Shown piece after piece: positions 4,751 to 18,583 of a stretch of DNA of 22,183 nt. This DNA comes from a virus. Lineage: Duplodnaviria; Heunggongvirae; Uroviricota; Caudoviricetes. Location: IMG/VR virus record IMGVR_UViG_2778261277_000014; one strand, given 5' to 3'. The notes under the pieces were generated by a model that ran no database searches, had not been told where the DNA came from, and saw only the letters and a program-made list of their open reading frames with translations. Each line of letters starts with the position of its first letter. Positions within the stretch are counted from its first letter, which is position 1. The position numbers and the translations under genes were made by a program.

Positions 4751-4808
4751 AAAAACGGCGGCAGAGCAGTCACGGAGTAAAACTGATACCGCCAAACGTC
4801 ACCAGAAA
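4751..4808 (-). ncRNA. dicF: DicF-like small RNA (about 53 nt) ending in an intrinsic terminator (GGCGG...GCCGCC stem + U tract)
   Basis: Minus-strand sequence UUUCUGGUGACGUUUGGCGGUAUCAGUUUUACUCCGUGACUGCUCUGCCGCCGUUUUU matches, from memory, the published DicF sRNA at all but about one position; located between the ydf genes and dicB. Confidence 0.65.
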
Positions 4809-8196: not shown

Positions 8197-8598
8197 GTGG
8201 CAAAAGTTTTTACACAAGAAGAGCGGGAAAAAATTAAAGGGCAGGTGGTGGAACTCGTACGCCAGAGTGGGCGCGAGACGTTACGACAACTGGAAGCTAA
8301 AACTGGGGCAACAAGATATCTGATGAGCGTTCTGGCCAGAGAGCTGGTTGCCAGTGGCGATGTATACAGCTCTGGTTACGGGTTATTCCCGTCTGAACAG
8401 GCGCGTAAGGACTGGCAAAACGCCCGCAAAAAACTCTCGAGGGCAAAGGTGAAGAAAACAGCTGTGATTGATCCGGACCTTATCTGGTCGTTACCTGATG
8501 GAGAAATACGTCGCTACGACAGTCGCCTAAACATAATCTGTCGCGAGTGCCGGATGAGTGAAGTTATGCAGCGCATACTGGCATTTTATCAGGGATAA
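8197..8598 (+). CDS. Hypothetical protein (133 aa), possible HTH DNA-binding protein
   Basis: GTG start 4 nt after a strong AGGAGG SD; no recognisable catalytic motif. Confidence 0.6.
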   Translation: MAKVFTQEEREKIKGQVVELVRQSGRETLRQLEAKTGATRYLMSVLARELVASGDVYSSGYGLFPSEQARKDWQNARKKLSRAKVKKTAVIDPDLIWSLPDGEIRRYDSRLNIICRECRMSEVMQRILAFYQG

Positions 8599-8787
8599 TG
8601 TTAGGTATTTTAGACGTTACTAGATTAAAAAGCATTAGTTCAGGAGTGAATTGACATTCTCATTTTTCATGGCACAGGGTAGATCTGGCGTGGTTGTCCG
8701 CTTTGTGCCAAAAGCGGACGCCTACGCCCTAACTAAGCTATTGTGTAATATACGGTACACAATAGCGAAAATTCTAAGCTTGGGAAT

Positions 8788-9720
8788 ATGGAAATCAACA
8801 AAGAAAAATTGTCAGGTTTACTTAACTACTTCGAGTCTCGCAAGAAATACGCTGCAACTCGAATATCTAGTTTATCCAGTCAGAATGAGATCTGTTTCGC
8901 TTTGTCAGGATTGACGTTTCGAAACGGGCCTTATGTTTTCCAAGACGTAGGTGAATTAAGGGAGGTACTTCATCCACCAGGAGAGATAGAGTTAGCCAAA
9001 GCGCTTAAGAGCAAGTCGCTACTCAGCGCTGTTGCTCGTCATATGCCCGCAGTTACGCATGAGCTTGCGTTGCAAAGCAGTGAGTCGAAATTTTCTCAAT
9101 CAGACCTGACTATCGGATGGTGGATCATATCCGCGATCCGATGCCGCACACTCACCGATATACTTGTTCCTGCAGTAGCAAGTGCATCTTGGGATGTATT
9201 CCCTGCTCTTCAAGCCAACTCGTGTGAAGTCCAACTTCTTGAGGACGTGCCGGCAGTTCGGAGAATAAGCCCAAGTGTAGAGATATCAGTAGAGTCTCTC
9301 GACTGGGTTCAAGAGAATCTCAAGCGTTGGATAGATCTGCTAGAGCAACCAGCATTCCGGCTCGCTATTGATTCTTTAACTACTCACAACCAACACGCGA
9401 ATTTGAGAATGGCTGCTGCTGCTTTATGGGCAGGATTTGAAGCGCTCTTTGGAATCAATTCAGAGCTTCGTTTTCGTCTTGCTCTTATGGCCGCAGCATA
9501 TCTTGAGGAGCGAGGGCCTGATCGTTTAGCCACCTATCGTAGGGTTAAGAAGCTGTATGACTACCGTTCGAAGGCAGTGCATGGGGGAGCTACGTCAGAT
9601 AACTTTTTAGTTGAGCATATAATTGAGGTACGAGTGCTTTTATCCCGATTAGTGTGTCGCATGACAGAGATCGGAAAAATGCCCACAACCGACGATTACG
9701 AGGAACGGCTTCTAACTTAA
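8788..9720 (+). CDS. Hypothetical 310-aa protein with a C-terminal HEPN-like R-x4-H-G motif (YDYRSKAVHGG); candidate abortive-infection RNase
   Basis: Long ORF with its own upstream AT-rich region and hairpins; R-x4-6-H is the HEPN signature; located in an accessory region next to a hok toxin. Function is inference. Confidence 0.7.
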   Translation: MEINKEKLSGLLNYFESRKKYAATRISSLSSQNEICFALSGLTFRNGPYVFQDVGELREVLHPPGEIELAKALKSKSLLSAVARHMPAVTHELALQSSESKFSQSDLTIGWWIISAIRCRTLTDILVPAVASASWDVFPALQANSCEVQLLEDVPAVRRISPSVEISVESLDWVQENLKRWIDLLEQPAFRLAIDSLTTHNQHANLRMAAAALWAGFEALFGINSELRFRLALMAAAYLEERGPDRLATYRRVKKLYDYRSKAVHGGATSDNFLVEHIIEVRVLLSRLVCRMTEIGKMPTTDDYEERLLT

Positions 9721-9780
9721 GGCTTTTTCTAAGGTAACTTGGAAAAACGCTTGTTTTATCTATACACAGTAAGCCTAACT

Positions 9781-9812
9781 TCAGTTAACCCGCAATAATG
9801 AGGGTTAACTGA
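9781..9812. repeat. Perfect 11-bp inverted repeat TCAGTTAACCC-N10-GGGTTAACTGA
   Basis: Read directly; no adjacent T-tract, so not a classic intrinsic terminator; possible protein-binding site or RNA hairpin. Confidence 0.5.
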
Positions 9813-10101
9813 TCAACCTCCAAGATTAGGTACAATGAAGTGGTCAACAAAAACTGGCCACCGCAAGAAAACACGTCTATGTCAGTATTTATTCCGAACT
9901 TCCGTTGTTCGCTCAAAGCGGACTAAAAGGTTAGCTTGTGTCGGACTTTGCGTATTAAAAGAAGTGCAGGTGGTGACTAGTGGTTGAGCCCCATTTCCAC
10001 AGAAAAAATCAGAGAAACTATACCCAATAGTTGTATTGAATCACTGACGAGACAGCCTCATATTCATCAGGACTGGTGTACGTCCAATACAGGAGGTTGT
10101 G

Positions 10102-10191
10102 GTGCTGGTTCTCAAATGTGCGCTGGCTATTACGGCTGTAATGGCGATTTATTGTCTTGCTATTGTTCTTATGGATCGCCTTTCTGACTGA
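10102..10191 (+). CDS. Unannotated small ORF: 29-aa hydrophobic peptide (M/V)LVLKCALAITAVMAIYCLAIVLMDRLSD, candidate small membrane/toxin-like peptide
   Basis: Strong AGGAGG SD at 10091-10096, GTG starts at 10099/10102, TGA stop at 10189-10191; single TM-like helix with charged C-terminal tail. Below the ORF-track length cutoff. Confidence 0.3.
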   Translation: MLVLKCALAITAVMAIYCLAIVLMDRLSD

Positions 10192-10402
10192 TTTCACATT
10201 GGCGAGGTAACGGTAGTTAAGTAGAATGGCTGCGGGTGCTTGAGGCTATCTGCCTCGGGCATGAACACCAACGGCAGATAGAGAAAAGCCCCAGTTAACA
10301 TTACGCGTCCTGCAAGACGCTTAACATTAATCTGAGGCCAATTTCATGCTAGACACATGTAGGTTAGCCTCTTACGTGCCGAAAGGCAAGGAGAAGCAGG
10401 CT

Positions 10403-10558
10403 ATGAAGCAGCAAAAGGCGATGTTAATCGCCCTGATCGTCATCTGTTTAACCGTCATAGTGACGGTACTGGTAACGAGGAAAGACCTCTGCGAGGTACG
10501 AATCCGAACCGGGCAGACGGAGGTCGCTGTCTTCACAGCTTACGAACCTGAGGAGTAA
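10403..10558 (+). CDS. hok: Hok/Gef-family type I toxin (HokD/RelF-like, 51 aa)
   Basis: MKQQKAMLIALIVICLTVIVTVLVTRKDLCEVRIRTGQTEVAVFTAYEPEE is a textbook Hok sequence; AAGGAG SD upstream; intrinsic terminator downstream. Confidence 0.9.
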   Translation: MKQQKAMLIALIVICLTVIVTVLVTRKDLCEVRIRTGQTEVAVFTAYEPEE

Positions 10559-10627
10559 GAGACCCGGCGAGGGAGAAATCCCTCGCCACCTCTGATGTGG
10601 CAGGCATCCTCAACGCACCCGCACTTA

Positions 10628-10658
10628 ACCCGCTTCGGCGGGTTTTTGTTTTTATTTT
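10628..10658 (+). terminator. Rho-independent terminator after hok (AACCCGC-TTCG-GCGGGTT + T tract)
   Basis: GC stem with TTCG tetraloop followed by TTTTTGTTTTTATTTT. Confidence 0.75.
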
Positions 10659-10774
10659 CAACGCGTTTGAAGTTCTGGACGGTGCCGGAATAGAATCAAA
10701 AATACTTAAGTAGCGCGCAGGGATAAGAGGGATGGTCCCTTAAAGGGGAGAGCTAATTATCCGGAAGGATTCTG

Positions 10775-11026
10775 ATGATGAACATCGAAGAACTGCGTAA
10801 AATTTTTTGTGAAGATGGCCTCTATGCTGTGTGCGTTGAAAATGGAAATCTTGTTAGTCATTACCGCATTATGTGTTTGCGAAAGAATGGGGCTGCGTTA
10901 ATTAATTTTGTGGATGGTCGAGTGACAGACGGATTTATCTTGCGCGAAGGTGAGTTTGTCACTTCATTACAGGCACTGAAAGAGATCGGAATAAAAGCAG
11001 GCTTTTCAGCTTTTGCAGAAGAATAA
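10775..11026 (+). CDS. Hypothetical protein (83 aa), Rem-like by size/position
   Basis: GGAAGGA SD before ATG; 83 aa, lying between hok and the DUF968 gene as rem does in Qin (recalled). Confidence 0.6.
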   Translation: MMNIEELRKIFCEDGLYAVCVENGNLVSHYRIMCLRKNGAALINFVDGRVTDGFILREGEFVTSLQALKEIGIKAGFSAFAEE

Positions 11027-13770: not shown

Positions 13771-13846
13771 GGCCCTTTAGCTCAGTGGTGAGAGCGAGCG
13801 ACTCATAATCGCCAGGTCGCTGGTTCAAATCCAGCAAGGGCCACCA
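13771..13846 (+). tRNA. tRNA with CAU anticodon (ileX/ileZ-like, probably tRNA-Ile2; Met not excluded)
   Basis: Full cloverleaf by eye: acceptor GGCCCTT/AAGGGCC, D-arm GCTC..GAGC, anticodon loop CTCATAA, T-arm GCTGG-TTCAAAT-CCAGC, 3' ACCA; resembles E. coli ileX. Confidence 0.85.
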
Positions 13847-13946
13847 TCACAAACCGCCATTAGCTTATCAGGAAGAGCAGACGACACGATAACAGGGTTG
13901 TTGGTGCGGGGGCGGGTCCCCGATGGCGGTCCATTATCGGTATTCA

Positions 13947-14023
13947 GCGTTGTTAGCTCAGCCGGACAGAGCAATTGCCTTCTAAGCAATCGGTCACTGG
14001 TTCGAATCCAGTACAGCGCGCCA
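13947..14023 (+). tRNA. tRNA-Arg (UCU anticodon), argN/argO/argU-like
   Basis: Cloverleaf: acceptor GCGTTGT/ACAGCGC, anticodon loop CTTCTAA, T-arm ACTGG-TTCGAAT-CCAGT, 3' GCCA; resembles argU. Confidence 0.85.
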
Positions 14024-14487: not shown

Positions 14488-15020
14488 ATACATATCTGGA
14501 TTATCACCTGTTACGGTAAAAAGTGATTGCTTACTGTTTTTGTGAATGGCATTGCAGCAGCCGGATAATGTCAGTGCTGGCTGACGGTGTGCTGGTGGCG
14601 GGTGTGGTAGTTGTTGCTTTCCCGTTGCTGAAAAAGAAAACGCCAGACTGTTAGCCGGGTATCAGTTAGCGGGAGAAATTTTTAAATACTTCACAATTCA
14701 GGCGGTTGACTGTTCTCTGGTTTGCGGGGAGTTTGTTAAAAGAAACTGGCATGGTGAATCCCCCTGTGCGGAGGGGCAATCAGCGAGTAGGTATATGGGA
14801 TAATCGCGGATTCAGGTGCTGGTACTGAATTCACCGGGAGGCACCCGGCACCATGCACTTCAATAGATTCTCTCCACATTATGGATATTCTTTCAGAATA
14901 TCCCACGCAGACTTTGTGTAAATGTTAACAAATGTGCGTTTTATTTGATCTGATTCGCTGTTTGAGCGTCCAAAACAACGGTATATATAATCCTTTACTA
15001 TATGACATATGTGAGGAAAA

Positions 15021-17802: not shown

Positions 17803-18053
17803 ATTAATATTAAATCGGATTATTTTTAGCGCTGAATGTGAAATTTAAATAAAAAGGACTCTTCCATGAGTCAAAATCCTTGAAATCTTAAGGGTAAGAT
17901 AAAAGGTCATTAGACAGAATGACACGTTTTATTAATAAATAAAGCTATTGTTTCATTCGTGTGTTTTTCTTTACAAAAGTAATCCTTGCTATGGTTGGTT
18001 AATCATGCGTTAATGGTGTTCTGGTTTGTTACAAAATTATCTGAAGCAGTCAT

Positions 18054-18062
18054 TGTTATAAT
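18054..18062 (+). promoter_or_regulatory. Extended -10 element (TGtTATAAT) of a candidate promoter for the cold-shock gene, giving a ~95-nt 5' UTR
   Basis: Read directly in an AT-rich region; no good -35, consistent with UP-element/extended -10 promoters of csp genes. Confidence 0.4.
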
Positions 18063-18162
18063 TTTATTATTTGTACCTCTTGAGATTTCCTTGTTGGTTT
18101 TTCTCTCTGATATTTTTTTTCGGACCATTCTGCCCAAGGGCTAACTTCTTCAAAAGGTAATA

Positions 18163-18378
18163 ATGATGTCTAACAAAATGACTGGTTTAGTGAAATGGTT
18201 TAACCCTGAAAAAGGTTTTGGTTTCATCACGCCGAAAGATGGTAGCAAAGATGTGTTTGTGCATTTCTCAGCTATTCAGAGCAACGATTTCAAAACGTTA
18301 ACTGAGAATCAGGAAGTCGAATTTGGTATTGAGAACGGACCTAAAGGCCCTGCAGCTGTTCATGTAGTGGCACTTTGA
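18163..18378 (+). CDS. Cold-shock protein, CspA family (CspB/CspI-like)
   Basis: RNP motifs KGFGFI and VFVHF; about 70 aa; prophage-borne csp genes are typical of Qin. Confidence 0.9.
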
Positions 18379-18583
18379 GGTAGAAAATATTACAAACCAT
18401 ATTCACTTTAGATGCCCGTGTTGCCATGGTTCTCAGTATAGAACATCATCTTTTGATGTTTCTGACAGAAATCCTTTCGGGGCAAAATGTATCTTTTGTA
18501 AATCAATGATGATTACATTTGATAATATTTCACAATACTTAAATGTTAGCCATCTGTCGTTAGATTTAAGAAAGTGAAAATGA

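Follow-up and report, generated by a model that had tools for sequence, protein, structure and literature searches.

A HokD-type hok/mok/Sok locus, probably a complete type I toxin-antitoxin module, in a Qin-like prophage

Introduction

The hok mRNA of plasmid R1 has been described as adopting three conformations, which may be termed closed, metastable and open (PMC9841398). On the chromosome of E. coli K-12, hokD (relF), with relE 71 nt upstream, is co-transcribed with relBE as relBEF (PMC3598666). The K-12 hok/sok loci have been described as inactive (PMC1635323). Expression of HokD is reported to be toxic (bioRxiv 10.1101/2025.08.07.668861).

The locus described here lies in a stretch of DNA of 22,183 nucleotides (IMG/VR record IMGVR_UViG_2778261277_000014), referred to below, at its full length, as the window. 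Its host is a Qin-like lambdoid prophage integrated beside rspB, and the locus itself belongs to a well-known kind of prophage hok/mok/Sok module, of which the window holds an ordinary complete copy. It is very probable that positions 10199-10653 constitute a complete and autonomous HokD-type toxin-antitoxin module (type I) whose mechanism, judged by homology with plasmid R1 and with chromosomal loci, is like that of the plasmid system.

The Hok and Mok proteins

Two overlapping reading frames and their Shine-Dalgarno sequences define the coding part of the locus:
10403-10558, + strand: hok ORF, a 51-aa membrane toxin of the HokD type (ORF list, Pfam and comparison with HokD)
10346-10558, + strand: 70-aa mok ORF, read in the frame of hok and ending at the same stop codon
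10334-10337, + strand: mok Shine-Dalgarno sequence GAGG, 8 nt before the ATG at 10346, invariant in the alignment of homologues
10389-10394, + strand: hok Shine-Dalgarno sequence AGGAGA, from the alignment with K-12 Qin; 10389 is the start of the K-12 hokD homology

The Hok protein matches the Pfam family HOK_GEF (PF01848) with 80.8 bits (E 5e-23, cutoff 22) and is identical to K-12 HokD at 50 of 51 residues (98%), the sole difference being A22V. The initial annotation had called this a hok type I toxin locus with a product near-identical to HokD/RelF, and both statements are borne out. The NCBIfam Hok models gave the 51-aa protein scores under their curated cutoffs, and its identity is therefore settled by the Pfam match and the 98% identity to HokD. 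In genomes with identical sequence, the RefSeq gene name is hokD.

An ATG in frame with hok at 10346 opens a 70-aa ORF, as had been noticed earlier, when it was described as an N-terminally extended form of the toxin. The product and K-12 MokC are 72% identical from end to end, and the similarity extends to the N-terminal part (MLDTCR... compared to MLNTCR...). In the K-12 annotation, mokC and hokC have the same stop coordinate, which means that mok is an in-frame N-terminal extension of hok in that strain as well. Since the 70-aa product is homologous to MokC and shares this layout, the extended form is Mok itself. The exact 70-aa protein occurs on 347 public contigs.

The codon for Tyr47 of Hok (window 10541-10544, + strand) is TAC in the context TACG, and Cys (TGC) is found at the same codon in 4 of 29 homologues. 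A preprint mentions published work in which TadA recodes hok mRNAs by A-to-I editing (bioRxiv 10.1101/2025.08.07.668861), and the TAC/TGC variation fits such recoding.

Leader and 3' untranslated region of the hok mRNA

The following promoter and leader elements precede the hok ORF:
10199-10227, + strand: hok/mok promoter, sigma-70-like in the promoter scan, with -35 TTGGCG, a 17-nt spacer and -10 TAGAAT
10234-10650, + strand: hok mRNA at full length (about 417 nt), running from the putative start to the terminator
10234-10245, + strand: tac (translational activator element) at the mRNA 5' end, GGGUGCUUGAGG, near-invariant in 29 homologues
10286-10294, + strand: ucb (upstream complementary box, the anti-Shine-Dalgarno of mok), from the folds and from the tac/ucb stem in the Rfam consensus
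10302-10319, no strand assigned: 18-nt hairpin insertion relative to hokC-type leaders, with a GCGUC-CUGCAA-GACGC core, from the Rfam alignment
10349-10355, + strand: Sok-target hairpin loop in the fold truncated at 10598, CUAGACA, containing CUAG (a YUNR-type motif)
10367-10371, + strand: dcb (downstream complementary box) GCCUC, partner of the mok Shine-Dalgarno sequence in the truncated fold and in the Rfam consensus structure

The hok promoter is modest, with 9 of 12 consensus matches, and is kept in 8 diverged copies. Transcription probably starts near G10234, the position at which the Rfam leader model also begins. This model, RF01794, matches 10234-10408 on the + strand over 157/157 of its positions with 115 bits (gathering score 59). 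Its name, sok, and the strand of the match could be taken to mean that the antitoxin RNA is encoded at 10234-10408 on the + strand and not as an antisense RNA, a reading to which we give practically no credence. The mok Shine-Dalgarno sequence and AUG are part of the RF01794 consensus, which extends as far as the hok AUG, so that the model describes the sense-strand hok leader. The candidate plus-strand small RNA was also rejected on the K-12 chromosome, where RF01794 matches the sense strands of hokC and hokB, with the annotated sokC and sokB lying opposite. The mok frame and the predicted Sok and leader elements lie within 10230-10400, where they had been forecast, and comparison with known hok/sok leaders, which had been put forward as a check, shows that the leader can be aligned to K-12 hokC as well. 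The 18-nt insertion is restricted to the hokD-type clade and shows compensatory changes. A U-turn role is ascribed to YUNR motifs of the kind seen in the Sok-target loop in the R1 system.

Downstream of the ORF, the 3' untranslated region holds three further elements:
10566-10587, + strand: 3' hairpin, stable, GGCGAGGGA-GAAA-UCCCUCGCC, present in all folds
10608-10620, + strand: fbi (fold-back inhibition element), CCUCAA-C-GCACCC, paired with tac in the full-length minimum free energy structure
10627-10653, + strand: intrinsic terminator of the hok mRNA, from the terminator scan, with its stem at 10627-10644 followed by TTTGTTTTT

The terminator agrees with the initial annotation, which had placed a strong intrinsic terminator after hok; its stem is indeed followed by a T-run. 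The 3' hairpin (helix 20) is 89.9% paired across the alignment, with 4 compensatory pairs, and by analogy with R1 it would be expected to protect the 3' end of the processed mRNA (PMC9841398). In the 29-sequence alignment the fbi box, CCTCAAyGCACCC, stands out as kept amid a diverging 3' untranslated region. The segment 10567-10648 (+ strand), which spans the 3' hairpin, fbi and the terminator, also resembles the Rfam family isrK (RF01394), a prophage small RNA of Salmonella (25.7 bits; gathering score 50). This sub-threshold resemblance could reflect distant relatedness or merely a common two-hairpin shape.

Alternative folds and their conservation

The 417-nt hok mRNA has a minimum free energy of -176 kcal/mol, with a z-score of -8.5 against shuffles; together with the Rfam E-value of 5.5e-26, this rules out a chance match. 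In the closed full-length fold, tac (10234-10245) and fbi (10608-10620) form 12 bp and ucb (10288-10294) is paired with the mok Shine-Dalgarno region (10332-10338), which is thereby sequestered. In the open fold, obtained for an RNA ending at 10598, tac (10234-10241) is paired with ucb (10286-10292) and the mok Shine-Dalgarno sequence with dcb, the mok AUG being within the hairpin. Other truncation points lead to a 5' metastable hairpin. The structure of minimum free energy for truncated RNAs depends on the 3' end chosen, the closed, metastable and open forms alternating, and these are the same three conformations as those described for R1.

Comparative support was drawn from 62 related loci taken from species-representative genomes. 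The alignment comprised 29 sequences, namely the window and 28 loci with homology over the full-length mRNA, at 72-99% identity. When the full-length structure of the window was placed on this alignment, 86.9% of the cells were paired, compared to 35-44% (about 41%) in controls with a slid 3' partner, and pairs changed on both sides numbered 42, compared to 19-30 with slid partners. In the 29 homologues, pairing of the tac/fbi helix reaches 96.8%, most of its positions being invariant, and the leader helices are 75-97% paired. Since tac, fbi and ucb are nearly invariant, conservation can be claimed for the tac/fbi and tac/ucb helices, with little covariation. Every element was located and shown to be conserved, Sok and its promoter as predicted features, and the alternative folds were obtained as well.

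Some homologous loci appear decayed. One (L014, 1389-1410) has a mutated tac, ATGACTGCATGTGG, and in two others (L065 and L052) the ORF and leader are disrupted by frameshifts or deletions.

Predicted Sok antisense RNA

On the strand opposite the leader, two features are predicted:
10278-10354, - strand: predicted Sok, about 77 nt, from the alignment to annotated K-12 sokC, with putative ends
10361-10389, - strand: predicted Sok promoter, with -35 TTGCCT (10389->10384), a 17-nt spacer and -10 TAACCT (10366->10361)

The predicted Sok was placed by aligning the window leader to K-12 hokC and transferring the annotated sokC coordinates, which sets its 5' end at about 10354, 8 nt inside mok. Published anti-Sok PNAs correspond in sequence to the sense strand around the mok start (PMC1635323), which fits this position of the 5' end. 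When 79 nt (10354->10276, the predicted RNA of about 77 nt and 2 nt more) were folded, the energy was -30.5 kcal/mol with a z-score of -5.5. The predicted shape consists of a single-stranded 5' tail of about 12-15 nt over the mok start codon, a long hairpin and then CUUUUCUCU, and SokC folds into the same shape. The 18-nt insertion extends the stem of the predicted Sok terminator; hokC-type leaders are devoid of it, which accounts for a SokC of 59 nt compared to the approximately 77 nt predicted here.

The predicted Sok promoter was located by homology and by a relaxed scan across the 29 homologues. Its -35/-10 pair (TTGCCT or TTGACC, 17-18 nt, TAnnnT) occupies the same place in all hokD-type homologues examined. 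With 7 of 12 consensus matches, of which the -10 TAACCT contributes 3 of 6, it is too weak for a consensus scanner, and for this reason the consensus promoter scan of the window listed no minus-strand Sok promoter. The initial annotation had held that the lack of a recognisable Sok promoter and of complementary leader elements would point to a decayed hok; the leader elements are present, along with this predicted and positionally conserved promoter.

Proposed mechanism

The arrangement of these elements suggests a mechanism modelled on that of plasmid R1, from which the ends of the transcripts, processing at the 3' end, cleavage by RNase III and the toxicity of Hok are presumed by analogy for the window copy. 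The weak promoter would give rise to a hok mRNA of about 417 nt, in which the tac/fbi closure and the pairing of ucb over the mok Shine-Dalgarno sequence would hold the RNA in a form that is neither translated nor bound by Sok. Slow trimming of the 3' end would take off fbi, allowing tac to pair with ucb and exposing the mok Shine-Dalgarno sequence in the dcb hairpin, after which translation of mok would drive the in-frame translation of hok. The constitutive but unstable Sok (about 77 nt, minus strand, 10354->10278) would pair across the mok start, blocking translation of mok and hok and handing the duplex to RNase III. Should the supply of Sok stop, through loss of the element or a shut-off of transcription such as that caused by phage infection, the stable pool of hok mRNA would be translated, and Hok would depolarise the inner membrane.

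It is unlikely, though a real prospect, that the locus is instead a relic whose anatomy is intact but which is silent in function, as with the chromosomal hok loci of K-12, Hok never being released owing, for example, to an excess of Sok, 3' processing that is too slow or single-copy expression that is too low. Published work cited in a preprint reports that the intact chromosomal hokA, hokB and hokC showed neither post-segregational killing nor activation by rifampicin (bioRxiv 10.1101/2025.08.07.668861), which means that intact anatomy is no proof of activity, and the modest match of the hok promoter to the consensus (9/12) points in the same direction. Against such silence, a single chromosomal copy of R1 hok under its native promoter is lethal without Sok (PMC9841398), all elements of the module appear to be constrained, in numerous lineages as well as in free phages, and inactivating lesions of the K-12 type are absent from the window. 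A functional module of the R1 type is the preferred reading.

Distribution

The leader (10195-10402) is present at a coverage of at least 80% in 4279 of 5426 complete E. coli genomes, while the relE-hokD junction occurs in 1173 of the 5426. An identical 1.4-kb stretch is found in several complete E. coli chromosomes, where the RefSeq genes are 'HEPN domain-containing protein', hokD and rem. In RefSeq genomes the annotated features under the leader are 'none', Sok and Mok of the hokD type being unannotated there. The module was found in 79 phage records as well, mEp460 (99.8% identity) among them, where it is annotated as MokW, HokD, gef or mok/hok.

Neighbourhood, cargo slot and small ORF

The surrounding prophage carries the Qin gene set (dicB, dicF, ydfA, rem, DUF968/ydfU, rusA, Q, essD, rrrQ and cspI). 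Upstream of hok lie two genes:
8788-9720, + strand: HEPN-like gene, 310 aa, annotated in RefSeq as 'HEPN domain-containing protein' in an identical genome
10099/10102-10191, + strand: small hydrophobic ORF, 29 aa from the GTG at 10102, MLVLKCALAITAVMAIYCLAIVLMDRLSD, from the ORF list

The neighbours of hok are as the initial annotation gave them, with a HEPN-like gene and a small peptide ORF beside it and relBE absent from the window. The HEPN-like protein carries an RSKAVH (Rx4H) motif in the vicinity of the C-terminus. It had no match in Pfam, NCBIfam or PADLOC, and only PHROG 28161, of unknown function, was found. Searches with the small ORF, Rem and a 92-aa protein gave nothing in Pfam, NCBIfam or PADLOC, and PHROGs returned only families of 'unknown function' overall. 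The presence of the HEPN-like gene beside hok is rare (16/5426 genomes). It occupies a site between the DUF977 gene (8197-8598) and the small ORF and hok module, at about 8600-9900 in the window, which in other strains contains a retron Ec67-type reverse transcriptase, a DUF5677 protein, a TPR protein or other hypothetical proteins. In K-12, relBE is directly upstream of hokD, the left-hand neighbours differ and the DUF977 gene is absent. The site adjacent to hok is a variable cargo slot, and this, rather than a reshuffled toxin cluster, explains the changing neighbour of hok.

The 29-aa ORF has a strong AGGAGG Shine-Dalgarno sequence at 10091-10096. Its Shine-Dalgarno sequence, start, frame and stop are all kept in 8 diverged copies, in which the differences comprise approximately 8 synonymous and 5 conservative non-synonymous changes and no indels inside the ORF; this pattern is suggestive of coding, on small counts. 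The exact peptide appears as a 'hypothetical protein' in a few GenBank records. Of the 5426 complete E. coli genomes, 1722 carry a segment of about 300 nt (9905-10198; 88-100% identity) together with hok, and no annotated feature covers this segment in any of the 1722. At its left edge, by a GTCCGCT...AGCGGAC inverted repeat at about 9905-9930, the sequence turns strain-specific. We tentatively entertain, with rather low confidence, the idea that the hok module is larger than annotated, the 29-aa ORF encoding a genuine small membrane protein that works with Hok or modulates it, and that the small ORF and hok together form the fixed right-hand anchor of a defence/cargo hotspot.

The small ORF ends 8 nt before the hok -35 and there is no strong terminator between the upstream genes and hok, an arrangement that recalls the co-transcription of hokD (relF) with relBE in K-12 (PMC3598666). 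Hok could accordingly be produced mainly as the distal gene of a read-through transcript from the cargo gene or the small ORF, with control by Sok and mok being secondary. This is improbable, considering that the module has kept its own conserved promoter and that the function of tac requires a defined transcript start; even in a read-through RNA with a 5' extension, the mok Shine-Dalgarno sequence would still be hidden and Sok control would still apply.

Several other observations concern the surroundings of the module. A promoter-like sequence, TTGAAG-18-TAGAAT (10667-10696, + strand), lies between the hok terminator and rem (10775-11026), and Rem is named 'prophage antirepressor' in one phage record. 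Elsewhere in the window, Rfam identified the DicF small RNA (4756-4807, - strand). Further Rfam matches comprised two tRNAs past the Q antiterminator region and the STnc100 small RNA (13771-14020, 14720-14910 and 18008-18424, all + strand), with a cspA-type thermoregulator leader before the prophage csp gene among those same intervals.

Comparison with known systems

From the hok Shine-Dalgarno sequence onward, the DNA is near-identical to that of K-12 Qin hokD (relF), with 3 mismatches, and the two loci share the 3' untranslated region with fbi, the terminator, the downstream rem and ydfU (DUF968) genes and a prophage adjoining rspB. Upstream of 10389, 14 nt before the hok ATG, the alignment of the window with K-12 Qin revealed no similarity. 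K-12 hokD has kept only these 14 nt in front of the hok ATG, relBE replacing the upstream module, and is left without promoter, tac, ucb, mok start, dcb and Sok, with fbi as an orphan; a search of K-12 hokD with RF01794 gave no match. Conversely, the arrangement in which a leaderless hokD directly follows relE is absent from the window, which has no relBE. As the homology begins only at 10389, it is K-12 that lost the promoter, tac, ucb, the mok start and Sok. On this comparison, the Qin locus of K-12 is the rearranged and truncated derivative and the window holds the intact form, and the genome counts given above point the same way. The earlier suggestion of a rearranged toxin cluster in the window is therefore reversed in direction. 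Pedersen and Gerdes (1999) reportedly described hokD as inactivated by rearrangement, which agrees with this reading of the alignment; their paper is among those cited in PMC1635323.

The hokC/mokC/sokC (gef) locus of K-12 likewise has mok in frame with hok, with Sok over the mok start as is predicted for the window, and its leader is about 75% identical to that of the window. Unlike the window copy, it has no 18-nt hairpin insertion and carries IS186 immediately 3' of the ORF. The hok/sok (parB) locus of plasmid R1 shares with the window copy its regulatory elements, as identified or predicted here, and the predicted switch between conformations (PMC9841398), but it differs in its divergent toxin sequence, in being plasmid-borne and in that post-segregational killing has been demonstrated for it, the mechanism being assigned here by analogy.

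Beyond correct annotation, the locus has little significance. The textbook hokD of K-12 derives by truncation from an intact prophage hok/mok/Sok module that is widespread, and scans of genomes should be expected to show hok ORFs whose upstream neighbour changes. The only leads that are mildly new are the small ORF, which is conserved but unannotated, and the cargo slot itself. Among the close relatives of the window copy are the mokW/hokW-type loci of lambdoid and Stx phages (mEp460, PPompW, the Stx2 phages and phage Rac), which show 89-99.8% nucleotide identity to the module and occupy the same site, upstream of rem and the Q antiterminator region. The module also matches PHROG 251, 'MokW-like host killing'. 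The window copy is a member of this phage mokW/hokW-type set, from which it shows essentially no difference.
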